NCBI GenBank assembly: GCA_002633005.1
Contig: NMRA01000017.1
Span: 79,125-143,124, forward strand
Reading direction: 5' to 3'
DNA: 64,000 nt
Origin: Phoronis australis
Taxonomy: Eukaryota > Animalia > Phoronida
Shown: positions 191-48,568 of the stretch, piece after piece
Position numbering within the stretch: the first letter of the stretch is position 1
How the letters are laid out: each line of letters opens with the position of its first letter
Notes under the pieces: model-generated
What the model saw: the letters and a program-made list of their open reading frames with translations, nothing else
Told to the model about the DNA's origin: nothing
The model's database searches: none
Made by a program: the position numbers and the translations under genes

Positions 191-202
191 CAAGATGGCG
201 AC
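191..202 (+). promoter_or_regulatory. YY1/TISU-like element over the SMARCD start codon
   Basis: CAAGATGGCGAC versus TISU consensus SAASATGGCGGC and YY1 core AAGATGGCG. Confidence 0.5.
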
Positions 203-299
203 GAGACCTCCCGGTTATCCTCAGCCAAATATGCAACAAAGACCTGGATTTCCACCCCAGGGTCCTCCAATGAGGCCATACCCTCAGCAGCCATTCGCT
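195..299 (+). CDS. SMARCD1: SMARCD exon 1 ([10 protein letters not shown]...QQPFA)
   Basis: ATG in CAAGATGGCG context; Pro/Gln-rich; donor GCT|gtaagt. Confidence 0.85.
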
Positions 300-3200
300 G
301 TAAGTAACAATAGATTTATACACTTATTAACTGACTCGTTATTCGATGATTGCCTTGCTCTCAAAATAGGAATATTCGATTAGTTTTTCTTTGTCTTCAT
401 CTGCCTGGCCTTGCCCTTGGCCTTGCCTTGGTTTTCTCAAGTCAATGACTGGGTCGTAAATGAGTGAATCTCATGTTTCTCGAATGTACTTTTTTCGTTT
501 TCTGTGGTAGGCAAGCCCAAGGCTTAGGGAATTTCGGCGAAAATTGGACGAAACCACCAAGCTAGTTGAGGTAGGTGGTTTCGCCCGAATTGTGTCGGCT
601 AATACATTTGTGACGGGAGCGCCTTGTATTGATGGAGTCGTGAGTTAAGTCGAGTCGTCAGTCAAGATTTTGTTTAATTCCAGAAGCGGACCCCGGAAGC
701 TAAAGTGGTCTACAATTACTGATATTTTAAATGGTTGTCTGTTGGTGAATCCCCTTATTTGGTACTTCCGATGACGAAAGTTTCACTTTACATTTTGATT
801 GGTTTTTACAATTCAACTTGAGACCCCTATTTTAGCGCAATTTGGTACATTCGCGGTGTGAATTTGTCTATATAAATGCGCCCCAAATGGTCAAACTTTG
901 GATTCTACCGAGTCTCGTTTCTATCTAGTAAGAGTCTCACATTTTCAACCCTATATCGGGTCTCGATTCTATCCGGTTAGAGTCTCTACTTTTTAAGTTT
1001 TAACTTTAGGATCAACTTTAGCTTACAAACTTTTCATTTTCTTGGCTTTGGAGACTGACTTGGGCGATTTCGCAGTCGATCCAAACTATTTGAGATTACA
1101 ATGACGATTGAAGCTAATGATGTGCTGTAAGTTTGTAGATTTTTATTTTACATTTAGGGCATAATAAACTCATTATATATGTCTTCTCTCTTGTTTCACT
1201 CTCTATAAGTTGTCACCATCGTTCTCTCGTATGCGATACGAATGAGTGAAAAGGGACACATTGCTGAAATTATTTTTATCGGCTATGAACAGTCGACTTT
1301 AGATCGGTGTTGGTCGCTCTACCGATTCCCGTTACACATTCATTTGACAAGTCATGGGATATTTACAAATCAACCAGTTAGACTCCTTGTTCCTAGTTCA
1401 GCATTAATGCCTTTGAACTTAAAGAATAATAACAATGGTCAAAATCGGGGAAATTCGGACGCCAGTGCGGAAAATGGTAGAGAGCGTTGGAGAAATTCGT
1501 ACCAGCAAATTCTATAGGTAAATCTCGGACAAAATATCTAATAGTACTTTATGATTTCAAAAAATGATAACAGGTGTTATTTAGCAGTGTCAGCATGAGA
1601 CAAATAATAAAATTTGAGAAGTTGTCATGTCCTGGCCACATTAACAGCCTTAAAATATGTCTTCCATTACCAATTTGTATGCAGCCTGCGTGGTAAGCAG
1701 TGCATTTGTTGTTAAAATTTAAGTCGTGAATTGACCTCTTAATGCAAAAGGTTATTATGTGAGTATGAATATCTCTCAAAAAAGCATTGAGAAAAGCATC
1801 TAGTAGTAGTAGCCCAAATGAATGGTGTCCAAATTTCCCCACGGCATACAATAAGTTGAGCATTGGGAAATTCAGACACCCATTTTTTGATCAAATCTTG
1901 CTTTTTGTATGTTTTTCAATTGAAATTAATACTGAAAACAGCATGTGTTATGCGACCAGTAAATATATGTAAATTTACACGACAAGGGACCAAGTGACCT
2001 AATGAGAGTGCACCTACTGTAGAGTCATGGTGCCCAAAATCACCGCGCCAATCAGGCGTCAGAGCAAAGTAAGGTGCTGAACATGCGTCATATGTGATAA
2101 ATAAATTCCTACTATTGTTCCAGGAAATGAATAAGTTTTTCACTTAGTAGAAAAGCAGCTTTGTTATTATTTTTGACATTTGTTTAGACTCTGCCAAATT
2201 TTGTTGCCGTGGGGAGTTTCCCTGCAACCATACTCTTTACCACACTAGGTCTATATATTGTGGAAAGAGTGTACTTATCTGTATCTCAGGCCCTTCAAGT
2301 TTAAGATCTATTTTCTGTATCCATCACTGGCACCAACATTCACTTGTAAATTAACATAAAGCTTGGACACTAAAAATCAGTATTCTCAAAAGTTTCTACT
2401 ATGAAGCTCTATGAAATTAGTATCGCACAAATCTTTGAATACCTCCTTTCACCTGATCACATCATATTGCATTAGACTTAATATCTCTATCGATAGAAAT
2501 TACAATTGATAGATAGTATCTCATGCATATGGGCGGCACAGCTCTGAAACAAGTGGGGGGAAGGGGGTTATAGCTCCCCAGCCCCCTATGGTGTGCTGCT
2601 CATGAGGCATGTTTTCTGTTGAACATTTACCAGGTTTTTTATGTGTTTCAAGGTTGACACTCTGAAGGTGTAACTCCACAGTGTTATTCCTTTCTTATAA
2701 AGGCATTGCATTTTTCAGGGGAGCCCTGCTAGACCGAACTTTGGCAGCCCTGGTCATCAAATGGGAGGCCCCCCTCGAATGGCCGGCCCTCCCCCTCCAC
2801 CTGGGATGCCCATGCATGCCCACCCTGGTGGAATGCCACACCCTTACCCAGTGATGACCCCGCAGAAAGGTTTGTGGAGATATTGAATTTTGCTTGAAAA
2901 TGTCTATTCATCAAATTTCAGCTTATGTGGTAAAGATGGCTTCAACTTTAAAAGCAAGTTTTACTGTTTTTGAAAAACCCAATTTATACCTTGTACTGTA
3001 AACGCGTCTTGCTTTCTTTGAATCTTCCAAAACTTTTAACTGTGTGTGCATTCATTTTAATTGAAATAATTGGTTTCAAGTGTTTGTGTGTTACCAAGTG
3101 CAGTGACCTTGGAGATAACTCAAAACTTCTCGATTCTCCTCTTGACAGCGAGCGGTAAAGCCAAGTCAAGTGAGTTTCTGAATGTTGTCATGGTAACCTT

Positions 3201-6200
3201 GCATGAGGGGGGGTAGGGCAAGCATGCTTGGATGTAACACTGTTGGCACTTCCTTCCACAATTGGGTCAAACTGCGCTTAGGTGCATCTAATGACGTCTG
3301 TTTTAGTACAGGTGTTGGGAGATCTGTATGTTTATCTTAGTAAAAGTCTGTAGTTAGCATGCTTATTAGGTAGGCTTAAATACTTGTGTTAGAAGATATG
3401 CTTGAACATAGTACAAAAGCCGATAATTTGCATTCTGTGATTGTATCAGTTGCATCTTCTTTGTGAAAGGAACTGTTATATGTTATTCTTAAAATTTTTT
3501 GCAACTCTGAGGTTTTGAATAAATATTCACTCCTTTGGGGATCATGGTTGCCACTTGCTTGACTAAGTTCCTGCATCAGTGCGATGACATCTAATGCAAG
3601 CCATCCCATTGTACGTGTGTGAAGGATACCAGCTACAATCTCACCACAAAATGTTTTCCCTTGAATGCAGGAGCAACAGGCGTAGCTCACCACCAGGTGG
3701 AAACATATGACCTCGAGAAGTTTATGGGCAACAGCAGGGCCCCCTACTGGCTTGTTGAATTATTGAATTTTATGCTCTTGAAGACTGTATAGCCAAGTTG
3801 GCTTACTACTAGTCCTGGACAGCACTATAGTTAACATTGTACTGAGTCCAATGAGTTGAGGTGTATGTTATAGGTGCGAATGATATATTGCGAGTTGGAA
3901 TGATTATCTATTAAAATTGTAAACAGACAACATTGCTGTGTGTTAAACCAGTCCTGTGTACAAGAGGGCTGCTGTCAAACTACTCGCAGTGTCACTCACC
4001 AGATACCACTGTCTTGCAGTCACAAATAGTGTTTGTTGGAAATAAGTGAAGAATTATGGTAGTAGCCAAAAGATGTCGCTCTAGTCAGCTAACTCTTTTC
4101 TTCTGTCTCTCCCCAGCCAAAAATAAAGAATCAGGTAAACACATTGTTCCATCTTCTGTAGATCTTGTAGTATTCATGTTCAGTTGTCTGCATGCTGTTG
4201 GTGTACTTGGATTACTGTCACAGATGTAAGAGGGCGCTAGTGAGTTGTGTTTAGTGGAAATGCTCACCTGAACACACGTTGATGGGTAAAACTTTGTAGC
4301 ATTACTGCAACTGTAACTGCATTTTGTAAAATGGGGGTACATTACCTTGAACCATTGCGTTTCCTGGTGGTTTACTGAAACATTCACTAATCATTTGATG
4401 GTGAATGAGACATCTACTGGTGAATCTCCCCTCTCTTGCCTGTGTTGGGCTTTGTTTTGTTTTGTTTCGTTTTGTTTTGTTTTGTTACTAAAATAACATC
4501 TGCTTCTTGAAGGGAAATGACAGAGAATTTTAGCAACTGGTTTTGTGTAGACAAGAATAGACATGGTTAGGGTTATTGTAAAGCTATTTTATACTAAACC
4601 AGCTGCTGTGGCATGTTTACTATTTAAAATTTTCATGCAAGAGTAAATTTTTATAGTTTTGAGTCTTAAGTGTTGTGTTTCTACGGCAACTGTTTTTTCG
4701 TTATTTTTGTTACCATATTAAGAAGGAATCCTCGAGTCGCAAGACTGTGGCATGTTAGAGACGCTGCTCCGAATGAAGTAATTGTAAAACATAGTTAGTG
4801 TTTTTAAATTCTATTTAAAAATAGCTGAATGTTACTAGTGTATATATTGCCACTGTATACTTTTTCACCCCTTAGATCAACTGCTGCCAAGTGCAACTGC
4901 TGTAGAACTGTACATTTCAAGACGGCTTATTTTTGCCAGTTTGGTCCAGGCCATTTCATGACATTTCATTTCACTATTTGTCTTCTCTGGTCACTCCGGG
5001 CTTTCATGTTGGGAAACTTTAGGCTTGTTCCCTACTGAAGGAGATATTTTAACCCAGCCAGAATAGCTGACCACAGTTTTCCATTTTTAGTACGCACAGT
5101 TGCCCACGTAGATTTATGTGTAACTCTAAAAACATGCCTAAATTTGGCTAGCCTTAAACATCTCGTATCCAATTTTAATGAAATTTTCAGATATTGCACT
5201 TTAAATACTATTTTTCAAAATGCTGCTAGACATTATTTTTAAAATTCCCTACTTTGGTGTGAGGGTCCATCAGATTCTTATGGAAAGAAACTAAAAGTTG
5301 CATGAAAGGAAAATGAAATAATTTGGAAAAACGGTTGAAACATTTTTGATATTTCAAAAACTATGTATACATATGAGTTATTTCATAGTGAGGGATTATC
5401 ACCAGAGGGCGCAGTGATAATGCCTCCAAATCCCAGTAGGGGTCCAGATACAGGAAGTAATGCCATAGGATATGTAGATATGGGTGATAACTCAGTAGTA
5501 CATATAATGCTCTATTTATCCCAGATATTTAGCAATGAACTTCATAAAACACGCAAAACAGAAATGAAAATAGTCAACTTTGTGTAACCTCAGTGATTCT
5601 TCATGCAGTGCACTGTATCAGACCACATGTGTGGACATCTTATGTAGAACATCACAGCATGCTCATTATGTTTTCTCACTAAATCATTATTGGTTGTTAC
5701 CCAATTGTTATTAATGATGCATGCTTGTATTGGCGGATAAAAACATACCTTCCGTAAAAATTCTTCAGTTTGGTACACAATATGGCAGACAGATGAAATT
5801 TTGTTTCATCAAGTTTTTCAAGAGAAATAACTTCAGGAAAATTTAGTTTGCTTTTAGCATGGTTTGTGCGGGGTAGTTATTACGAAGCAACATTTGGTAA
5901 AATTTTGAGCGTTTGCAATAATGTGGTATGCATCTGAAAAATAAAAATATGGCAATTTTAACGATTATTTTTGTACCAAATTGAGGAATTTTTACGGTAT
6001 TTAAATTGTGTAGTTGAGTAGGTACTTGACTAAGTACACAGATGTTGGCAGAGTAGTGACTTTCAATGTCTTAACTTTGCTTAAATTGCATTTAAACCCA
6101 TATTTGTGTGCTTTGTTATGCTACAAGGTCTGTGAATTTGTCATAATTTTATGTTTAGCATAGTGCTTTTAATTGATGTTGTTACAGTGCTTTGTATAAC

Positions 6201-9200
6201 TTAGTTTTAATGCAAAATGTATACTGTTCTCTTGTAATCGAAATCAGTGATTTTCATATTTGTTGTTGCGAGAACTGGGCGAACACGTAGCATTTTCGAA
6301 ATTATTTTCTGTCCACACGCGGATTGTTCAAAAGTGTGTGGAACCATTTATACCGGAAATGCTGCACTTGTTATCCATACTATTACAATGAGAATCTTGT
6401 AAATGTTTTTGATGTGTTTTGCCTCTGTTCGTCTTCTGTTGACACCATGTTTTCACCGTAAATTCTCTGTACTTGTATGGTTTCTCTCTCTCTCACCACT
6501 CTCATCTCTGCCGTGTCCTATTTTCTACAGCTTCTAAATCTAAGGATAAAGATTCTTCAGGTGTGTACAAATTGCATGCTGCATGTACACTGTACAACTA
6601 ACACCTCTCTCTTTAAAGCCACGTTCTCACTTTGTGTCTAGTTGACCCTGAAGTCATTTGGTAAAATCTCACTACACGGCTGACAAGTGAAATTTTATGT
6701 TTTTATTTTTTTAATAGATTAGTTGCACCAAGTAAATGCTATACCATTTTAAGCATCTATGCCCTCAGACTATGTTTCTGGGAAATTGTGGACATTTAAA
6801 ACTATGGAAACTTTTGAAAAATGAAAAGACCAATTTTAGTTTTGCCCGAAATTGGTGACGTTTCACCACGCATGAACTGGTGGCATACTGCTGTAGAGTT
6901 TACAGTTTGGTGATTCATCAGCCTTAAGTTTTTTGGCCTCAGGCGGAATGGGAACTCAGTTTGTATAACGTGTAAGAGTTGTATGGTGCTGTCTTAAGTT
7001 ATAGTTAAGTAGCATATTAATTACTGTTAAAATGTTTTAGCCAGTCTTACATGGAGGTCCAAAAAATCAACCAAACAAATTTCATTGTTACTTTGTTTAA
7101 TGCAATGGTTACTGAGTTTGACGCATCCCAGTTCAATCAGCCTGTGTGAAAGCAGCTTTAATTGGTCTTTTAAAACATTACCACTGTTCCTACAGAGGTG
7201 TGTATTGCAGCAGTTTTTGTGCAAAGAACTTGGAACTGTTTTAAACTGTGTAAACACTGTATGCTTAAAGTTGCTCTAAACCTCGGTTGTTCCAGCATTT
7301 TAACTTTTGACTAGTCATATACTATACAAGTGGTCTCATCGTTGTCTCGTACTCAAATGAGAAGAGATTTTTTGGGCTTGGATAAAATCAGCAGTTCGTT
7401 GTTGAGAGCATGTGTCAGACACGTGATGACACGCTGTGACAAGCTTGTGTGCACAACCACTAACAAGCTGTCAGTATTTTCCAAGTCCAGGGTAGAGTTC
7501 AGTGATGCTAGGATCTCACTTGAAAAGTATGACTTCGCGAGATTACACAACATATTGCCGTGTTCTTTAAATGAGATTTTTCTAGCCACGAGACAGCTAC
7601 AGAACTTTACCCAGAATTCACCTGTAATTTTAGTAAGGAACAATTTCAAAACAGTAAGTTGTCTTCAGTTGGTGGAAGGTAGGTTTATTGCAGCTTTGAA
7701 TTGGTGAGAAAGGTTGAACTTATTGCCCTGCTCAGAACTTATAACTGGGTGGCTGTGTAGGTCTGCACGAGCTGAGTTGAGATGAAGAAGATGGCCAGCA
7801 CTGGCATATCCAGAAGTATTCAATAGTATTATAGTGTAACCACGAAATTGTGGGCAGGGGTTGGCGAAATGAGTGGCAAACTGGGGCTCTTTTCAAAGAA
7901 CAGGTGCTAATCTCAAAACTGAAATTTGAATTTGTACTTCAGGGATTTTGTTTGCAATAAAGAGGAGGAGGGGCATGACCCCATTGTGCCGCTTTTCATT
8001 GTGGTGGCGTTGGTCATGCCCAATAGAAACCCCTATTTTGTCATTTTTGTAGCCCATGCATGGAAAGGGTACTTTTGAGTCATAACTGATGGCCACGGAG
8101 GGTAGATAATACAGATCTTACATGGTCCATAATAATTGAGGATCACTCTGGTACTAATATAGACTTGGTCTCTCATAACTCGGGTTGCTCTGGAACCTAG
8201 ATAATATATAGATCCTGTTTTCAAACTTGGTCCATCATAACTGAGGACCAAGTGCTCTTGCTAGATAGACCCCTGTTTTCTGTTTTGCACAATTCTTACT
8301 GAGAACCACAGTTGTTAGATATGTGGACTCCTCTGTTCTGTCCTTATACAGACATAACTCTGCACTTGTAACTGAGGATCACTGGCTCCACCCACTTGTA
8401 ACTGAGGATCACTGGCTCCACCCACTTGTAACTGAGGATCACTGGCTCCACCCACTTGTAACTGAAGATCACTCTTGCTAAGTTGTTTTTACATGAGGAA
8501 CAGTTGTCATGGCGCGAGTTGTCACAGCCCATTTACATTTACACGCAACATTAGATGGCAAACTGGATCAGCAGGAGTCATTTACATGACAAATGTCTGT
8601 GCTTGCTTGCATAAACAGTAGTGAATGTTCAAAGCCTGTGGAATGCTAGCGAATCACTTGTATCTGTGGTATTACGCTGGCGTAATTGAAATGATCCTTT
8701 CCGCCTTGCCCCAGTTTGTGTTTAGACATGTAATTGAAATTGGAGCAATTGATCGAGTGCAATTCACTCTATCTCTCAAATCGGTGTCAAAAATGGTCGC
8801 TGCGGTGTCAACTTGCTCCGTGTCTGGTGTTTACCCACAAATCTCTGCGGATCAGCTGTTCCATGATAGTTGCTCCGTGACAACTTTCTCCGGTGTAAAT
8901 GCAACTTTAGATGTATAGATCCCTGTGTTCTATCCTGACAGTCATACCTCTGTACTACTGGCAACCCCTATTGTAACTGAGGTTTACTGTAGTTACTTGT
9001 CTAGATTCTCCTGTCTTATGTCAACTGCACCTTTCACTCTTAAGGCAAGTCCCGTAAAAAGAAAGACAAAGAAACAGACGGTGATACCGACAGCAATAGT
9101 GAGGGTAACTAGCGGGCATGACACTTTGTCACAGTCAATATTATTTGATATTTGTTTTCTTATTATTTTAATATGTTTTCATTTCTTTATAGTTACACAG

Positions 9201-12200
9201 CGTTCTTCACGATTCGTTATTAGTTTAACTGTTGTTTGCTAAAAAGATAACGTCGCAAAAGAAAATGGATGATTGTATTTTGATTGCGCTTGTGATACTA
9301 AGTGTTACTACCGTACTTGTCCAAGGTAGCGCCCATATCCAGCTTACCCGTCTCCCCCCCCAAATTTTCTTATTTTCACTTCAAAAAAAACCATTTATGT
9401 GACTGAGACTTCCTTCAGTGTCTTTGTGAACGGCAGCCTCATCAGAATTTTGGTACGGAACGTGCTTAGCTATGAGTAATGATGGATCATTTTCTGTGGA
9501 ATCTTGCATTATTTGGTCAGGAATATAACCATGCTGTCCTCATCTTTACAGAAGGAGACATGTTTAGGCTCATGCTAACTGTAATTATCTTTAACGAAAA
9601 AACAGTTGTGTAAGCAGCTCATTGTATGTGTAATGTTCGTAAAGGAACGTACATTGCAGTATGTTGCACTAATGAATTTCTGTGGGCAATTATTCTCTTT
9701 CTTTGGGTAAGTCCCCCCTCGACTTCTCGGAAATTTTGTATGTTAATTATCTATGTTTTTGTTAATGCCTACCCCCTGGTTTTTGAGTTCCTCAATTTAG
9801 CCACCTTGGACGACCACTGTATACACCAAACTATCCGGTGCAAGTTTTGCACGTGTTCCACCGTGGACGAGCACGGTAGTCACCAAATTGTCTGGTGCAA
9901 GTTGTGCCCTTGTGTTCCACCTTGGACGAGCACGGTATACACCAAATTATCTGGTGCAAGTTGTGCACAATGTGTTCCATTCATGTGCTGTTTCGTATTC
10001 TTTCTGTGAAGAAATCTGTGCCTGTGCTCTGATAGCTCTCAGTGCACTGGAAGCCTGTTGTTATTACAATCCCGTGTGGAGTATTCAGTCCCAGTGTTCT
10101 ATCATTTTCTGCCTTTCAAAATTGTCAACAGTTTCAAGCCAGTAGGAGAAGTATACAAATACAACATTATGAACTTGCACTTAAAGACAACATATCGTGC
10201 CCTAAAGTTACTATCTTTTACATTACCTTTGTATCACCAATGGAGTGTGGCAACTGAGCACGGACTCCCCAACTCAGTAATGAGTGTGTTGCATCTGAAC
10301 TGGAGAAAGTGTTGATAATAGTTACCAAGGAACGAATGAACAAACATGAACAAACACTCTTGTTCAATGTCAGTGCCACCATTTATTATTTCTAATCTAC
10401 GTCGTATATTGTGTATTAAATTACTTGTTGCCTTGTGGCTTGATGTTCATGTGATTGACAGCATGTTGTAAGTAAGTAGTTGTATTTTGACAGATGTCAG
10501 CCAGTCATGTGTAGTAATGTTCTCCACAAGACACTGTCTTTGACAACACTTCTGGGAGGTTTGTGTACAATGTTACATGAACCGGTACTTTAAACTGGCC
10601 CAAAAGTGAACAAATATCCTTATATATTTGACAAAGGGGTGCGATAAATCTCCCATTTATTGAAACTTGTTGCATTGGTTTTTAAACTAGCCACGTTGAA
10701 AGACATCCGTATGGATGACAAGTCAAAACAGTTTGTGGAAAACACTGTATGTTGTTGCCAGTTTTCTTAAAAGTGCTAATTAGAATCTTGAAATGTTTGA
10801 TTTTGAACAGTCATGGATAATTCATATTGTTTACCGTAATCGTTCGGGTTAACGCCCTGGGCGGTTAAATTGGCGAACCCAAAAAATCGGGGGAGGGCGG
10901 TTAACCGAGCAGTGGGGGGTTAAATCGAAAATCCACTTAAAGTAGGGGATGGGTGGTTAAGTGAACATGGGCGTTAACCCGAACAATTACGGTAGTTTCT
11001 CTACGGTTCATTGAAAACAGTGTAGTCCATCTGAATGTTAGACTCTTGGTCAACTGATGGAAATATGAACTTGTGTCAGTTACAAAAGACTGATTGTTCT
11101 TGACGTGTGTGAGTTGTAGTATAAACTCAGAAATTTTTTGCATTTCACAGATGAAATTGTTTCTTAAACATTTTTGTCCCATTTATGATGTTGAAAAAGT
11201 TGTCTGAAGTCATAAAAATGCTTTCATGTCAAATGCGTTCTTGTAAACAAAATAATATGAAAGTTCATGTTTTCTGGAAAGTTAAACGAGTTCCAATTTT
11301 AAAATTTTTTTTCTCCCAACATGTCGACTATCCTCATTAAATAGGGTCGCAAGCTTCATTGTGTTAGAGTAAAAAATCTTCAATTTTGGACAAAAATAGT
11401 TGCAAATGCTCAAAATTTTACCAAATGTTGCTCGGTAATAGCTACCCCATACAAACCATTCAAACAGCAAAGTAATTTTTCCTGAAATATCATTTTGTTA
11501 AGAAATTTGACGAAGTGTAATTTCATCTGTCTGCCATATTGTGTCCTAAGTTGAAGAGTTTTTATCATGCCGTTTTGTGTTGTTTTGTTTTGTTAGTTAT
11601 TGTCAGGTAGTTATAATGACTACCATGGTATTATATTCTGTGCTAACCAGCTTTGTCTTTCTCTCTGTAATCATTCTGCGGTGATTCTGACGTCTCCGCC
11701 ATCTCTAGTCACAGCTACCACTGCCATCTGTTGTCGTACACTGTAGTGATCTGAGCTATAGGACTGATGTCTTGTGACACAGTTCCAGTCAGTGTACAAA
11801 CTCTGCTCAACTGATGCCACGCCCGATTCCAGTATCAGAAAGTGGCTTGTGTCAATGCTATCTTGAACTGTTCATTGCAGCAGTCTCAGTCATCAATTGC
11901 AATGATGTGCCAATAAACTGTTTGTAATCTTGTCAACTGCTCTAGATGTATTTGCTAATATTGCAAACTGTTTATTAAGTGATCATGTTTACACAAACAT
12001 TCTACAAATGGGACTGGGTGTTACATCCAATGTGTCTCCATGGAAACCCGTTTATTATCAAATTGCAATGTTAGGTCTAGATTTCCAATCACTAGGCACC
12101 AGTTGAGCCAGCTTCCAAAATGTTTAGGGTCCACAATTTTTAGGAGTACATGAACCAGTCCAGAAATGATAACATTAGTGCAAAACACTGGATGTTGAAA

Positions 12201-15200
12201 AAGTGAGACGAACCTGGTGTTATCGTTTTACCAACAGAGAATACAGGAAGGTAACTAACTAATGAAACTTAGAGTATTTCTTCAGTTTTATTTCTTACAA
12301 AAGTGATTTATCCATAAACTGGATATGCGCCATCTCCAGCTTTGTGCCTAATGATGCAAAAACATAGCCTCGGCCGAGCACTACTGACCATTGCTTGGCG
12401 GTGATGCCAGCATGAAATAAGATGCGTCTCATAACGTCTGCACTATCTCTACAGATGTCAAGTCCATGTGTCTCCCATGATCTTGTTTCTCTGCCCATTA
12501 TAGGTATGGCCATGCCTAGAAGTGGTATGTCCCCAGCCATGCAGTCGGACAGAAAGAGACCACACTACGACCCACGCGCACAACAGATGAATCGACCCCC
12601 GTATGTACTTGGCTTAAAATTGACCAACCGTGTCCAGGCATGCCAATGAGTCAGCATTTTTAGTATTTAATTTTAAGTTTGTGATACGTTGCTCTTCAAG
12701 CAATGATTGGTCTGTATGTTTCATTAATATTGACCAAATATTGAATTATGCCCACATTTTTTACTCGAGTTCTACTATGATTGTTCATGGTTGGTTATTA
12801 CACCTGGCAGTTCTGTACAAGCTGATACACAACGAAACTTAATTACTGTATGGATAGACATTAATTTTGTTTGGAACTGTGGATGTTTGTGTGTTTTTCA
12901 GGAAAAAGAAGAAAAAGCTGGCTGACCGTATACTGTCACAGCGAGTACGCGATCTGGTGCCTGAATCTCAGGCCTATATGGATCTGTTGGCGTTTGAGCG
13001 CAAGTTGGACTCGACCATCATGAGAAAGAGGCTTGATATACAGGAAGCTTTGAAACGGCCTCAGAAGGTGCAGTATTCTTTGCGAGTACATGATGCGATT
13101 CCTTGTCATATCTTCCTTCCTGTCGGGTTACGGCCAGTCAGCCTTGCAACTAGAACACCAAGACTTCACTGTTCAAAATCTTACTACTTACAGTAAATGT
13201 GCACTTTCAAGACTCATGTTTCTGCTTTCAGCTTAAGTAGTACAGTTGCAGTATGTAACATTACCCAACCCTGTGGATGGTTGGCCCATGTTGTTGCTGA
13301 CCTGTGATAACAGCTTTTGGTGTGAGGACATACTGAAGACTGGTTCAACTTAATCACTTAGTTAGTCTCTCTACAGAATGTACACAAGTCTACGCAAACA
13401 AAATAGCCGACCTAATGCCTGTTCTAATGCTCCAGCCAGTGCTGTGAAGCCTTGACTTATGATGAGCTCTTGAGTCCTTTTTAGCAACTGTCACACTTGT
13501 AGACTGATTCAATAACTTGCTGTCTCTAGCTGGCTCATTTTTGTCTCAGAAACAACTCTGTAACTGCTCACGCTGTGATTAACTTGTGCCGGAGTATCAC
13601 AGTGTCATATAATGTTCTAGAACTTTTCACCAACTCAAGCACATTCTAGAACTTTTTGGAATGTGCCTTATCATTATACTTGTATATGTTTTGGTCAAAA
13701 AGGTTCTAGACCATGGTTCTATGTCAGTCAGTAATATGTTGGCACCTAGTAGAATGTTCTCAAGTATTCTAAAATATAAACAATTACATAATCACTGGTC
13801 TGACATAACTCGGTCATGTCAGTCAAGTACACAAATAAAACAGCCATACAAAACTGAAAGAACTAAAACCAGTGCTAGCCTCCCGATGCAGTAGTTGACC
13901 AGGATTTGGGTTATGTATTTTGCCTTTTCCCATCTTGGTTTTTATGTTTGGATATTGAGCAATGAAATTTATGTTTACTATTAATTATTTATAGCAAAAA
14001 AGAAAGCTGCGTATTTTTATCTCCAACACATTCTACCCTGCTAAGCCAGACAATGAAGGCGAGGAAGCTGAGAACATTGCATCATGGGAACTGAGGGTTG
14101 AAGGTCGGCTCCTGGAGGATGTAAGTTCATAGCATGAACAGTTTGTACAATAATAAATTCAATGAGAGAATTGCACAAACTCCTGGAGATCACATTTAAA
14201 GTGCTTAAAACCACCATTTACCTTATTTTAACAAGTAAATCTTCCTTTGTAGCGCTGCATATCACAACCATGAATTCAATATCCCAATAATGAGAAAATA
14301 GATCAGAAGTGGCTGCAGTTCCTTAGATCCATGGATATGACCGTCATTTTTCAAAGACTGATTACTTTGCTACAAACAGTTGAAACTTGACCAAATGTTT
14401 TACGATATCTGCACAGTACAAACTATCCTGGTAATAGAGTAAAAAAAATTTTTAATCTTTATTTTTGTGAAGAAATTTGACAAAGTAGATTTTCACTTGT
14501 CCGCCATATTGTGCGCTAAATATGTGGAAAATTACGGTAATTAATTATTGACTGTGCATCTGTTGCAGAACTTTGCCTCTAAACCTCCAGAACAAGGAAA
14601 GAGCAAAAGGAAGTTTTCAACATTCTTCAAGAGTTTGGTGATAGAGCTGGACAAGGAACTGTATGGTCCTGATAACCACTTGGTGGAGGTGAGTCAATGT
14701 TTTATGTCTGTGTGGCGGTGAGTGTTAATGTTAACCTGAAAGTCTGGGTTGGGTTGTATAAACCTTCAAAAGTTATCAGCTGGATAAGTTTGATTGTTGC
14801 ATGACGTCAGGTGTTTTGTTCAACAACAACAACGCGGCACGTGATATTGTGATCTCATTGTTACTACATGTGCTACTTTTATGCAACTGAGCCCAGGTGT
14901 TTATTGAGATGTAGCACAAATTAGTTTTCAGTATAAAGTAGTCTGACGTTGACAGAACTCTGCCGAACTTGTATGAATTTCTTGCCAGAATTATTAATCG
15001 GGCTTAGTCGACTTTTTGTCACAATAAAATAGCGTTTGTGTCAAACTTTTGTCGGATTGTGAAAATGTGTTATGCTATCTTTGGAGTCATATAATGCTTG
15101 GTGTCACTCTGTTTCAGTGGCACCGTACCCCAACCACACAGGAGACAGATGGGTTTCAGGTGAAGCGACCAGGTGAACATAACGTCAAGTGTACAGTACT

Positions 15201-18200
15201 ACTCATGCTTGACTATCAACCCATGCAGTTCAAGTTGGATGCACGCCTCGCTCGTCTCCTGGGTATACACACACAGACTCGCCCCGTCATCATCAATGCA
15301 CTCTGGCAGTACGTGAAAACACACAAGCTTCAGGATCGTCATGAGCGCGAGTTCATCAACTGCGATAAGTATCTGCAACAGGTAGGTGGAGGGGGATATG
15401 TGTGATAAGTACCTGCAACAGGTGGGTGGAGGGGGTATGTGTGTTGGGGGTTAGGGTTGGGTCAGGTAGTTTTATCTTGATTGGCAAGGCTACCTCACAA
15501 AATCCAACATGCTTGAATGGTCCTTACTAGCAAGATTAATTGATATACTACCCTGTTCAAAGTAGCAAATATTATTTAACCTTTGGCTCTTCAGTGGCTT
15601 ATTCAAAGATTCACACTTATCTCATTACTTGAGTTCAGCTTCACGCTACAGCAGTTTTCATTCAAAAACTAGGTCAATGGAATTCTTGTCGAAAATTGAT
15701 GAAATTCTAATGCATAAATTTTCTGCTTAATTGTTTAAAACTTCATTTTTTGCCTGTTTACTTCTTGGTTTTTGCCATGTTTGATGAAGTTAGAAGAAAT
15801 GTGACGAAATTTGTTGAAGCATCTTTTTTGAAATCTACTGTACCATCTGTTTACCGATCATTGCTTCTAAATGTATTTTTAATTTTACTATGCAGTACTA
15901 CTAAATACATGGCTAGTTTTACTAGGTAGTAGTACTATGATATTTTCACTGAATATTGGTACCAAATGTAGTGCTAGTTCTACTGGATAGTACTACTACT
16001 AATCTGTTGCTAGTTCTATTGGGTAGTACTACTACTAATCTGTTGCTAGTTCTACTGGGTAGTACTGCTACTAATCTGTTACTAGTGATACTGGGTAGTA
16101 CTACTACTAATCTGTTACTAGTGATACTAGGTAGTACTAATACTAATCTGTTACTAGTGATACTGGGTAGTACTACTACTAATCTGTTGCTAGTTTTACT
16201 GGGTAGGGCTACTACTAATCTGTTGCTAGTTTTACTTGGTAGTACTACTAATGGTTTTTTCTTCTCCCTTGCTTGCAGATCTTTGAGTGTAGCCGTATCA
16301 AGTTTGCCGAGATTCCTCAGCGCCTACATAACTTGCTACATCCTCCAGACCCTATCATCATCAACCACGTGATTCAGTAAGTACTTCCCCGACCCTATCA
16401 TCATCAACCATGTGATTTAGTAAGTACTTCCCCGACCCTATCATCATTAACCACGTGATTCAGTAAGTACTTCCCCGACCTATCATCATCAACCACGTGA
16501 TTCAGTAAGTACTTCCCCAACCCTATCATCATCAACCACGTGATTCAGTAAGTACTTCCTCGACCCTATCATCATCAACCATTTGATTCAGTAAGTACTT
16601 CCCCGATCCTATCATTATCAACCATTTGATTTAGTACTACCCTCTACTGTGTCACTTGTGAGTGTGTACACATTACAGTGCCATCTGTGACTGTCAACAG
16701 ATGGCACTGTGATCAACTCTAGCCACACACAATGTGTACATGCTCCATGTTCTAAGTCTTAATTTTAGGGTGATTTCTCGAGTCTTATGCTTTTGATATT
16801 TTTGTTGGTCACAGAAATAGGATCCTGCCACAGTAAGGAATATTACGAGTCCGATTTTTTTTAGTGTAAAAGGTCCAATTCAGTTTTTGTTTTTTAACCT
16901 ATTAAGCAGTGCAAAATGCCTGCTTTAGGTAATGAGGTGGGCAATAATTTATGTTTTCTCCAATGTATCTAGACTTGTTTTCATTTTGCTCATTTGTGAC
17001 ACATGTCTTTGGAATGAAAGTTTAATCTAATTTCTCCTCCTATGGTGGAGATGAAACTGTGACTTTGTTTGTGATCTCTTTCAGTTTAGGTATCCAGTAA
17101 ATCATGTGCTTTTGATATCAGCCTCAGACAGCATTGTAACCAAACTATGATGGACTATGCCACAATGATGGAGTGTTTTGGTAGCGATTTTGAGGTTTAA
17201 TAGATATAGACTTTGCCGCAATGACAGAGTGTTTTGATAGCAATATTGAGGTTTAATATAGATAAAGATAAATCAACAGATGACTATGGACTTTGTATTG
17301 AAGGGTTGAAGGGCCTGATGCTGCCAAGAAGACAGCGTGTTATGATATTGATGTGGAGGTGGATGATACATTGAAACAACAGATGAATCAGTTCTTGTTG
17401 TCTACACAGAGTCAACAGGAAATCACAGCTCTCGATGCCAAGGTAGACTGTCTTTGAACTGAAATGCACAACCAGCGGGATTGTATCAGAGAGTGAATAT
17501 ATTTTTTTTAACTTAAAGATGTATTTGCAAGCTCCTAACAATAGGAGGGACTAAACAAAAATGTTGTTTTAACATAATCTACGCTAAACAAAGTGCAGTT
17601 GTATTCATTGACAACTTGAGAAAACAAAAAAATTCTGTAAATACCATAGCCACTTGGTATTTTATTAAAGGTCACCAACAGCAACAATCCAAGAATCATT
17701 TTACTTTTTCAGGATTTGCAATTCAGGCAACCTAAGAATGTTATTCAGTTTTTTGTTTGTTATATAATTATTTCTAAAGATAATCGCCACCATACATTAC
17801 ATGTCAAAACTACTATGAATGGGAAAAGTTTCTACCAAATTACAAAAAAATAACTTTGTCTCTGTTATCATTTTATTACTTGCTTAAACTTTGCTTTAAG
17901 TGTTCATCGTTTTGTTGCAAGCACACTTGCTGGTGGCAAGAAAAGTTGTCGCTGACTCAACTACATTCGTTGAAGTTTGTATGGCTGATTTTTGCAGTGG
18001 TTTCTCTCCAGCTTTTTAGTGCTATTTGGATAATTTGTATAAGCATTATTTTTAGCCTCCATGTTTTATCGTTCACCGAATGAATCATTTTATTGTGTAA
18101 ATTGATATATGTCCCACACTGTGACTATACTTCTTCACCCAGTAGGGGGTCAGAAGGTCTGTGGTTTGACTCCAGTATTGCACTAACGTGTCTCTTACTC

Positions 18201-19790
18201 CTCTTGGCTCGACATTAGTTGTGACGTGTAATGAAGTAAACTTGGATTTAAAGCAATTTTCAGGGAGTAGTGTATTGTGCTAATATTAAATTATTGACCC
18301 ACTTGCAGATTCACGAGACAGTAGACAGTATCAACCAGCTGAAGACAAGTCGTGAGTTCTTCCTCGGCTTTGCTAAGGATCCACAGGAGTTCATCAACAA
18401 CTGGCTCATCTCACAAACCCGCGACCTCAAGGTACACACTTTTATTATGACGAAGTTTTTGTTGTAGCTTTGTTGAACCACATGCAGCACCATCTGTTAG
18501 AGCGCTATTTTAGATGTCAGCTCTTAAGCTGTTTTTGAAAGATAATTGATTGCTGAAAATGCAAAATATTTAAACACTCATTGGTTATAATTTGGTGTTA
18601 GTGTCAAGAACATGTGCTTAATTTACTGTATTTAGATACATCTGTAATTTTAAAAAATTAGTGAATTTCATCAAACGTTTTCGCTTTGTTGAAGCTGTGG
18701 CAAAACTTCAGACAAAAATACTTCATACCTAAATATTTTTTAAATTATCCAAAACGTTGCACTCTGAAACTTTTCCTGATTTTTGAAGAGAAAAGATTCT
18801 TCAGCCTTTTTTAAAAAACAGGATTTCTTGCATGGTGGCCATGTTTCCACTTGGGTGAACTTAATCCTGTTTTTCTGTTGTGTCCCAGACCATGACTGAG
18901 GTGGTAGGTAACCCCGAGGAAGAGAGGCAGGCTGACTACTACAACCAACCCTGGACCCAGGAGGCCGTGTGTCGCTACTTCTATACTAAGGTAAGCACCA
19001 CAAGATTTGACTGCCGATGATGAGTAGGTAGGGGGAAGCCCCCCGTACAGTTTCGCAAAATCTGTCAAACTCGCCTTCTCCCCTCGCAGTATTAATTGTG
19101 GACGTGGCCAAGTCAGCAACATAGTGATTCTGGCTAGAGGGCAGTAGTGTTCATGACTTGAAGGTCTGTAGTCTGCTTGGTTGACATGACGCTGACTAAA
19201 TGGCAACAGTGTTCATGGCTTGGTGATCTTTAGAATGTTTGACTCGTATGACTAGCTAAATGACAACAGCGTTCATGTTTGCCCTTCCTTATCTTAAGTC
19301 TGCCCCGTCGGGAATGAAATTTTGACTGTAGTAGTCTAATGTGTGTTACGGGTATAAGACAAGCATCTGCAGTTCATTCATATATTGTACTAATACCAAT
19401 AATACAGTCATACTTCACAAACTCCGATAAAAGACTGCCTAAAATCACGAGATCTCCAGAGAACCCGCATGGACGTTTGCATATCAATGACTAGCCAATA
19501 GCTTCAAGTTTCAAGAAGACGTCACAATGGACATCAGAATACGAATAATGACTTGCGCTTATGGGCCACATGTTTGAAGTAGTACACTAAATTAAAATCA
19601 CTAAGGTTTGCATCTTGATTTACGAATTGTTTTAAATTCTGAGCATGACTCATCATCAATGCGATGGAAACCACATCTTTTTTGGTACGTTTTCGTTTTT
19701 GAATATTTATCATCATGTATTTTTTACATTTACTAGGTGCAACAAAGGCGAGTTGAATTGGAGCAAGTTCTGGGAATACGCAATGCCTGA
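195..19790 (+). CDS. SMARCD1: SWI/SNF-related regulator of chromatin subfamily D (BAF60, SWIB domain), 12 core coding exons, 514 aa
   Basis: Joined exons 195-299,2719-2869,12504-12600,12902-13067,13995-14120,14569-14688,15118-15381,16279-16376,17304-17442,18309-18431,18889-18990,19737-19790 = 1545 nt, all GT-AG with matching phases. Family motifs: [83 protein letters not shown]. Confidence 0.96.
2719..2869 (+). CDS. SMARCD1: SMARCD exon 2 (GSPARPNF...MTPQK)
   Basis: tttttcag acceptor; Pro/Gly/Met-rich open frame; AAAG|gtttgt donor; phase 0 to 1. Confidence 0.85.
3149..3169 (+). CDS. SMARCD1: candidate SMARCD cassette microexon, 21 nt (A-SGKAKS)
   Basis: cttctcgattctcctcttgacag acceptor, gtgagt donor, phase 1-1, no stop. 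Confidence 0.65.
4117..4134 (+). CDS. SMARCD1: candidate SMARCD cassette microexon, 18 nt (KNKES)
   Basis: gctaac branch point, long pyrimidine tract and ccccag acceptor; CAG|gtaaac donor; phase 1-1. Confidence 0.65.
5751..5920 (+). repeat. dispersed DNA-transposon-end repeat, inverted relative to copies at 11397-11566 and 14470-14540
   Basis: Shared blocks ACACAATATGGCAGACAGATGAAATT and AGCAACATTTGGTAAAATTTTGAGC. Confidence 0.75.
6531..6560 (+). CDS. SMARCD1: candidate SMARCD cassette microexon, 30 nt ([10 protein letters not shown])
   Basis: about 50-nt pyrimidine tract ending ttttctacag; CAG|gtgtgt donor; phase 1-1. Confidence 0.65.
8362..8473. repeat. 30-bp minisatellite, about 3.5 copies
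   Basis: CACTTGTAACTGAGGATCACTGGCTCCACC units. Confidence 0.9.
9045..9104 (+). CDS. SMARCD1: candidate SMARCD cassette exon, 60 nt ([20 protein letters not shown])
   Basis: ctttcactcttaag acceptor; GAGG|gtaact donor; phase 1-1; purine-rich exon-like composition. Confidence 0.65.
9800..9980. repeat. about 57-bp tandem repeat, 3 copies
   Basis: CCACCTTGGACGAGCACGGTATACACCAAATTATCTGGTGCAAGTTGTG units. Confidence 0.85.
10834..10992. mobile_element. Tc1/mariner-type MITE with TA target duplication
   Basis: TA|CCGTAATCGTTCGGGTTAACGCCC ... GGGCGTTAACCCGAACAATTACGG|TA; 24-bp TIR with 1 mismatch. Confidence 0.85.
11397..11566 (-). repeat. inverted copy of the 5751-5920 repeat
   Basis: Reverse complement aligns by eye over about 170 bp. 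Confidence 0.75.
12504..12600 (+). CDS. SMARCD1: SMARCD exon 3
   Basis: attatag acceptor; [19 protein letters not shown]; CC|gtatgt; phase 1 to 2. Confidence 0.85.
12902..13067 (+). CDS. SMARCD1: SMARCD exon 4
   Basis: [36 protein letters not shown]...RPQK. Confidence 0.96.
13995..14120 (+). CDS. SMARCD1: SMARCD exon 5
   Basis: [17 protein letters not shown]...[13 protein letters not shown]|gtaagt. Confidence 0.96.
14569..14688 (+). CDS. SMARCD1: SMARCD exon 6
   Basis: [28 protein letters not shown]|gtgagt. Confidence 0.96.
15118..15381 (+). CDS. SMARCD1: SMARCD exon 7 (start of SWIB domain)
   Basis: [19 protein letters not shown]...[11 protein letters not shown]|gtaggt. Confidence 0.96.
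15970..16252. repeat. 36-bp minisatellite, about 8 copies, ending at the exon 8 branch point
   Basis: GTAGTACTACTACTAATCTGTTGCTAGTTCTACTGG units. Confidence 0.92.
16279..16376 (+). CDS. SMARCD1: SMARCD exon 8
   Basis: [34 protein letters not shown]|gtaagt. Confidence 0.95.
16348..16636. repeat. 43-bp minisatellite made of the exon 8 3' end plus donor, about 6.7 copies
   Basis: GACCCTATCATCATCAACCACGTGATTCAGTAAGTACTTCCCC units. Confidence 0.95.
17304..17442 (+). CDS. SMARCD1: SMARCD exon 9
   Basis: [21 protein letters not shown]...EITALDAK. Confidence 0.94.
18309..18431 (+). CDS. SMARCD1: SMARCD exon 10
   Basis: [41 protein letters not shown]. Confidence 0.95.
18889..18990 (+). CDS. SMARCD1: SMARCD exon 11
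   Basis: [34 protein letters not shown]. Confidence 0.95.
19737..19790 (+). CDS. SMARCD1: SMARCD exon 12 (last coding exon)
   Basis: [20 protein letters not shown]. Confidence 0.95.
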   Translation: MQQRRVELEQVLGIRNA

Positions 19791-23344: not shown

Positions 23345-23551
23345 TTGTTTCATAAACTAATGCAGAACACATGATGTGAACGTAACAGTAATAACTAATC
23401 AACACTGTCAATCAATTTGTTGTCACCATGACAACGCATCAAAGCTGCCATAAGAGTCAATCATAAATGTCCTAATCATTATAACTTACACAATTATCTC
23501 TTCATTATGCAGTAAGATCATGCAGCCAATAAGGTGAGACCACACAGTCTC

Positions 23552-48568
<25,017 letters not shown>

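Follow-up and report, generated by a model that had tools for sequence, protein, structure and literature searches.

Closest described systems

Neuron-specific microexons are known in several chromatin regulators, including exon 8a of LSD1, PHF21A, and exon 34' of TAF1 (PMC11864812, PMC11701043). The gene considered here encodes the BAF complex subunit SMARCD/BAF60 of Phoronis australis and lies in a stretch of 64,000 nucleotides (nt) of contig NMRA01000017.1 (positions 79,125 to 143,124, forward strand), called the window below and numbered from its first letter. Intron 2 of this gene contains two alternatively spliced microexons, A and B, and two further likely short exons, C and D. As with the LSD1, PHF21A and TAF1 microexons, a broadly expressed subunit of a chromatin complex has alternative exons that are short and in frame and that provide, or here would provide, cell-type variants of the complex. 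Those are single vertebrate exons, several of them tied to SRRM4, whereas up to four exons stand in tandem in one intron here (six in the brachiopod Lingula), accompanied by Rbfox-type motifs and a repeated peptide motif. The term "SMARC" is absent from the main text of both PMC11864812 and PMC11701043.

Alternative splicing of a BAF subunit has also been described for DPF2/BAF45d, in which an exon 7 switch alters the behavior of the complex in differentiation; that switch differs from the SMARCD array in concerning another subunit and one PTBP1-repressed exon in mammals (PMC11701043). The Rbfox-activated exon 6 of Snap23 is likewise short and in frame, with (U)GCAUG on its downstream side only, but its regulation was tested by binding and knockdown, whereas the SMARCD array is known from the motif alone, repeated behind four exons (PMC12064062). 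A third parallel is the exchange of the vertebrate paralogues SMARCD1, SMARCD2 and SMARCD3, which yields tissue-tuned BAF60 variants with one copy per complex; this diversity comes from separate genes and not from cassette exons in the N-terminal tail (PMC13300182). Splicing of the array would draw from one BAF60 gene a diversity comparable to that which vertebrates obtain from three paralogues. BAF complexes specific to cell types are known chiefly through such vertebrate paralogue swaps, and a conserved cassette array in the BAF60 tail suggests a testable way in which animals lacking those paralogues could tailor the complex.

The homologous system is found in the database isoforms of lophotrochozoan SMARCD, for example those of Lingula anatina (XP_013410646-XP_013410737), which have optional modules of the same lysine- and serine-rich (K/S-rich) kind at the same site. 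SMARCD isoforms differ in module number and sequence among lophotrochozoans and are annotated merely as numbered isoforms, with no annotation of their regulation. Alternative microexons are already known both from chromatin regulators and from one subunit of BAF, and the modules themselves are present as unnamed isoforms in the public annotations of relatives. No published description of a SMARCD array was found at the level of titles and abstracts; figures, supplements or invertebrate splicing atlases may hold one.

Two other kinds of short-exon gene were compared and rejected. Schistosome micro-exon genes consist mostly of symmetric microexons and have a secreted product; the short exons of the window supply only 43 of the 557 residues of the full-inclusion protein, and the protein, a BAF subunit, is nuclear. 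The four segments also differ from tandem duplicated exons of the mutually exclusive kind (PMC9741552), which are homologous and used singly, A and B being present in the same reads and DNA comparison giving no clear sign that the four segments are copies of each other.

The short-exon array of intron 2

Intron 2 spans 2870-12503 and is in phase 1. The initial annotation, which was made from the sequence alone, had proposed four frame-preserving short exons within it, and their AG..GT ends, phase 1-1 placement, lengths in multiples of three and freedom from stop codons, singly or jointly, were all confirmed. Splice strength was scored with a matrix trained solely on the 11 constitutive introns of the gene, and the segments were ranked among the 486 intron-2 candidates that are bounded by AG..GT, divisible by three, stop-free and 9-75 nt long. 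Three raw RNA runs from the same species (X1-X3) were aligned to the gene. The array, its downstream motifs and the flanking exons are as follows.

2719..2869, forward strand: exon 2, constitutive, with a phase-1 end; gene model and RNA joints
3149..3169, forward strand: microexon A, 21 nt, internal codons SGKAKS; three RNA reads (X2); splice rank 16 of 486
3200..3226, forward strand: TGCATG (3200) and GCATG (3222) downstream of A; motif scan
4117..4134, forward strand: microexon B, 18 nt, KNKES; RNA joints in X1 and X2; splice rank 1 of 486
4189..4194, forward strand: TGCATG downstream of B; motif scan
6531..6560, forward strand: likely microexon C, 30 nt, SKSKDKDSS; splice rank 2 of 486; AG-free zone of 136 nt
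6573..6585, forward strand: two TGCATG downstream of C; motif scan
9045..9104, forward strand: likely short exon D, 60 nt, basic then acidic; splice rank 38 of 486, the weakest of the four
9116..9120, forward strand: GCATG downstream of D; motif scan
12504..12600, forward strand: exon 3, constitutive; joined to exon 2 (skip joint 2869-12504) in 5, 2 and 3 reads and to exon 4 in 14, 5 and 8

Published abstracts place the upper limit of a microexon variously (3-27, at most 30 or at most 51 nt); A and B fall within all of these limits, C within the two wider ones and D within none. Alternative donors may exist within D, after 9080 and after 9098. No fifth K/S-rich exon was identified in intron 2 when 659 candidates with lengths of 6-180 nt were scanned.

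RNA evidence for alternative use

About 18-19% of each RNA run was used, a joint was listed only if at least three reads in one run contained it, and read mates were counted as separate reads. Three joints were listed across intron 2, all on the strand expected of sense RNA. Exon 2 was joined directly to exon 3, skipping the whole array, in ten reads distributed over the three runs. It was joined to B in four reads (three with three different starts in X1 and one in X2), in which the letters between are not fixed, and A was joined to exon 3 through the sequence of B in three reads with three starts from X2. The matched lengths of 23 letters appear to fit exon 2 before A and exon 3 after B. The presence of inclusion joints beside skip joints, with 7 reads against 10, establishes A and B as real exons that are alternatively spliced, and the splice sites proposed for them from the sequence are used in RNA. 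Inclusion of B is approximately 7/17 reads (41%, interval 22-64%), about 17 being the total over the exon 2-3 junction. Among the rows listed for the X4 contigs, only the skip joint is present, and the joint counts across intron 2 given above are those of X1-X3 without X4.

Rbfox-type motifs

The proposed placement of Rbfox-type motifs was borne out as well. The sequence GCATG starts at 3201, 3222, 4190, 6574, 6581 and 9116, the first copy beginning 32, 56, 14 and 12 nt past the donors of A, B, C and D, respectively, and it is absent within 150 nt upstream of all four exons. Only 10% of intron-2 positions have GCATG so near, and it is the sole 5-mer common to all four downstream flanks. Four random GT sites share GCATG in 4 of 20,000 draws (2e-4) and share any 5-mer in 5.8%. 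Of the 29 donors that score at least as high as that of D, nine have GCATG within 60 nt, and six of these nine belong to the four exons or their variants. The choice of segments in the initial annotation cannot explain all of this, since A and B are established by RNA and C stands out by its splice rank. Binding of Rbfox downstream of an exon promotes its inclusion (PMC12064062).

Optional modules in related SMARCD proteins

Homologue searches and cluster look-ups identified optional modules rich in lysine, serine and threonine (K/S/T-rich) where the part encoded by exon 2 meets that encoded by exon 3 in many lophotrochozoan SMARCD proteins. The 12 proteins of Lingula anatina comprise 11 variants, built with six modules that are 6-10 residues long; in the cluster of the limpet Patella there are four (8 variants in 9 proteins), and in a bivalve set, which we take from its accession to be oyster, three modules are present in all 8 combinations (8 variants in 10 proteins). 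Modules at the same site are also present in Littorina, other snails, Mytilus and Octopus, and in sets that are presumably scallop-like, abalone-like and nemertean. Inserts of this kind are also present in proteins of Ridgeia and Paralvinella and in two metagenome contigs without introns (L004, L014), and the KNKE of B recurs in limpet and snail modules. An optional K/S-rich array at this site is shared by brachiopods, molluscs and annelids, which the initial annotation had missed. Its suggestion that gene predictors would overlook these exons is wrong for the relatives, whose database isoforms include the modules; the XP records among them are RNA-guided predictions, not validations. Combinatorial use, which it had also proposed, is seen in the three forms in RNA here and in the complete set of combinations in the bivalve, while the figure of 16 combinations is an upper bound only, as the variants of Lingula and the limpet appear nested and not free.

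Module number (1 to 6) and sequence vary between lineages. Ten clusters were chosen for their visible inserts, so that the presence of inserts in 10/10 is not a frequency. Among four lophotrochozoan clusters chosen without a visible insert, two had inserts among their members, Owenia was ambiguous and one, a cluster of six assembled annelid-like proteins, had none. Under thin sampling, no variation at this site was found in two chelicerate, two insect, one fish, three cnidarian and one cyclostome-like cluster, and the sampled vertebrate SMARCD1 proteins have no insert there.

One metagenome contig that is annelid-like by protein (L044) contains the same phase-1 intron, and within it a 63-nt in-frame candidate exon rich in lysine and glutamate at 1644-1706. 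The candidate is similar to exon D and to the inserts of both Ridgeia and Paralvinella; it has a modest splice score and no RNA support. A tandem GCATG island common to L044 and contig L037 (E 0.01) lies approximately 200 nt downstream of it. Comparison of the window with L044 revealed no conserved intronic island (best E 0.12). A second island is shared by L044 (2569-2601) and L037 (1179-1206), with a common acceptor and GCATG clusters 60-90 nt upstream; it measures 33 nt in L044 and 28 nt, which would shift the frame, in L037, and is possibly an Rbfox-repressed or poison exon.

A separate array was identified one exon upstream in a presumed echinoderm-like clade (support 0.95). It consists of three modules rich in serine, threonine and lysine with invariant junction residues, which suggest that the array is in phase 0 and arose independently.

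Proteins P0349, P0410-P0415, P0394, P0416-P0420: echinoderm-like SMARCD isoform sets

Insect BAP60 isoforms (P0064, P0065, P0069, P0097 cluster) differ at a third site of the tail, immediately ahead of the KKKKK cluster. Cassette exons appear to have originated repeatedly and independently in this one disordered tail, in lophotrochozoans, echinoderm-like taxa and insects. Two Owenia proteins, P0019 and P0226, differ across the whole exon 3 region, as if by an alternative exon 3, besides an insert rich in serine and threonine. Past the SWIB region, where the window has its exon 8-9 junction, P0124 (~413-425, Lingula) and P0038 (snail) also have optional inserts, which account for many isoform length differences.

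Encoded peptides and the N-terminal tail

The four peptides were aligned to the inserts of 11 relatives, one oyster pair being left out; Owenia, heterobranch and echinoderm-like inserts are outside both this test and the motif counts below. Exons C and D were more similar to the relatives' inserts than all 453 of the non-overlapping pseudo-exons of the intron. Among pseudo-exons of equal or shorter length, none was as similar for A (0/166), B (0/130), C (0/242) or D (0/403); longer pseudo-exons scored as high in five cases for A and three for B, and the likeness is partly compositional. By splice score and by likeness to relatives, C and D are likely to be exons.

A repeated linear motif, K-x-K-[D/E], occurs 19 times in the 15 inserts of relatives, 11 of which contain it, against 1.9 expected from 3,000 composition shuffles. 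The four exons of the window contain five copies, located in B, C and D, against 0.6 in shuffles, and none of the 453 pseudo-exons contains one. Each of the 16 inserts has a positive net charge (+1 to +17), that of the window being +4. The core pattern of SET7/9 is enriched in the relatives' inserts (7 against 1.5 expected) but overlaps K-x-K-[D/E] and is present once in the window, which is a lead only; the published methylation consensus of SET7/9 is partly fitted by K-x-K-[D/E] (PMC8949485). The SUMO pattern is not enriched in the relatives' inserts.

The insert follows residue 85, within a tail rich in proline, glycine and methionine. In a structure model of the longest Lingula isoform, residues 1-173 have a predicted local distance difference test score (pLDDT) below 50 nearly throughout and essentially no secondary structure, the insert site included. 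The site maps to approximately residue 90 of human SMARCD1, where the human protein is annotated as disordered; the N-terminal part of SMARCD1 binds nuclear receptors (PMC13300182) and p53 (PMC11895388).

Proposed function and alternative explanations

The explanation that is moderately probable is that A and B, together with the likely cassettes C and D, are included under the promotion of Rbfox and add a variable number of K-x-K-[D/E] motifs to a predicted disordered tail, tuning partner binding by cell type. Rbfox would bind GCAUG behind each short exon and raise inclusion in Rbfox-rich cells, which would give the array a tissue bias. Graded inclusion would then place from zero to several basic K-x-K-[D/E] units in the N-terminal tail, and these, with copy number mattering, may alter the binding of partners or nucleic acid, or the lysine modification of the complex. 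A broader version, in which a spliced dial of K-x-K-[D/E] copy number has been kept since before the split of brachiopods, molluscs and annelids to provide cell-type BAF complexes from one gene, each Rbfox-driven microexon contributing one motif to the tail by which transcription factors are recruited, the echinoderm array being independent and vertebrates using paralogues instead, is offered as a tentative and rather doubtful extension. Several observations weigh against the Rbfox-promoted motif array. No RNA joint with C or D was listed, the splice score of D is weak, and an inclusion of ~41% for B, provided that the samples are bulk, does not resemble a switch confined to rare cells. The sequence GCATG is approximately twofold overrepresented in intron 2 as a whole (19 against 10.4 in shuffles, P 0.015; antisense form 14), the GCATG nearest to the L044 candidate exon is some 200 nt away, and an intron-wide excess is not significant in L044 (8 against 4.6, P 0.10) or L037 (7 against 5.1, P 0.25). 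The motif K-x-K-[D/E] was chosen after inspection, the related taxa are not independent, and 4/15 inserts (octopus, another cephalopod-like pair, mussel, scallop-like) lack it. The Lingula structure model is poor overall (pLDDT 57.5, predicted TM-score 0.34). The modules turn over fast in number and sequence, as would also be expected of tolerated drift.

Such drift is an unlikely alternative in its full form, in which the exons are real, their inclusion reflects default splicing strength only, and the near-neutral additions are tolerated by the tail and come and go in evolution without serving any function. It accommodates the differences in modules between lineages, the six annelid-like assembled proteins without an insert, and the variation of echinoderm-like and insect proteins at other N-terminal sites, by which the tail readily accepts inserts; but the use of the same site in brachiopod, mollusc and annelid proteins, an ordered motif that far exceeds composition shuffles, one RNA motif behind all four exons, and the absence of such inserts from the examined cnidarian, chelicerate and fish clusters all speak against it. 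Even with neutral inserts, the locus would clearly exemplify the gain and turnover of exons within disordered sequence. It is more improbable that the exons belong to the neural eMIC programme (SRRM3/4, Srrm234), with GCATG secondary. The features of eMIC exons include a long AG exclusion zone, a UCUC tract and a CUAAY branch point (PMC8797185), and in the window a long AG-free zone with a TCTC run is present for C only and a CTAAC branch motif for B only, while A and B are within the 3-27 nt range. The initial annotation had drawn an SRRM3/4 signature from TGC in the tracts upstream of C and D, and TGC is indeed there, at -22 and -19, upstream in the tract and not near the 3' splice site between tract and AG, the place of UGC in eMIC exons; none precedes A or B, D is 60 nt long, and TGC is equally frequent at constitutive acceptors (5/11), so that its presence before C and D is uninformative and the signature is not supported. 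In favor of the eMIC programme, UGC is not strictly required for its exons (10.1101/2024.09.17.613571).

That only A and B are exons, C and D being pseudo-exons that fit by chance, is very unlikely. No joint with C or D was listed in X1-X3 at their low depth, at which forms below ~10-20% would escape the three-read threshold, and the rank of D also favors this explanation; opposed to it are the rank of C, the superiority of both segments over every pseudo-exon in likeness to the relatives' inserts, their K-x-K-[D/E] motifs and a GCATG within 14 nt of each. Least probable is a nuclear-import or CK2-phosphorylation switch, which the initial annotation had proposed for D. This exon does have a basic cluster and two CK2-type sites, but the skipped form already contains RKR and KKKKK clusters, and over the 15 relatives' inserts the nuclear localization pattern is at chance (5 against 3.8) and the CK2 pattern below it (3 against 11.6 in shuffles), so that neither a localization switch nor acidic phospho-sites as a conserved feature is upheld.

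Host gene and other features of the window

The SMARCD/BAF60 gene is complete, with 12 constitutive exons at 195-19790 on the forward strand encoding 514 residues. The gene product exhibits full-length similarity to lophotrochozoan SMARCD proteins at approximately 70-80% identity. Homologues of exon 7, with the SWIB domain (PF02201), are 83-92% identical in 119 of the 120 matches listed and 73% in the remaining one, and a homologue search using exon 2 alone gave no matches. Two trees place the Phoronis protein outside the mollusc and arthropod clades, in no resolved order beside Lingula, Owenia and others. The remaining exons of the model are as follows.

195..299, forward strand: SMARCD exon 1 (coding part); ATG at 195; open reading frame; joint 299-2719 in 17, 12 and 5 reads
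12902..19790, forward strand: exons 4-12, conserved SMARCD body and SWIB domain; gene model; stop at 19788-19790

Intron 1 contains a candidate exon at 511-570 on the forward strand, which is 60 nt long, in phase 0 and stop-free and has the top splice score of the scan (20.8). No joint to it is among those listed in RNA; Octopus isoforms have optional pieces near the same site. Two tandem repeats, at 16348-16636 (43 nt x 6.7) and 15364-15443 (40 nt x 2), copy the 3' ends of exons 8 and 7, respectively, and include their donor sites, providing additional possible donors. Dispersed intronic repeats at 5754-5990, 10832-11000, 13427-13640 and 14450-14800 attract many reads from elsewhere in the transcriptome; in the gene-wide alignment, repeats crowded the list of joints, 16 rows of which lay beyond those shown. 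Downstream, the last coding exon of what we take, reading by eye, to be a HECT-type E3 ligase gene is located at ~23510-23665 on the reverse strand and converges on SMARCD.

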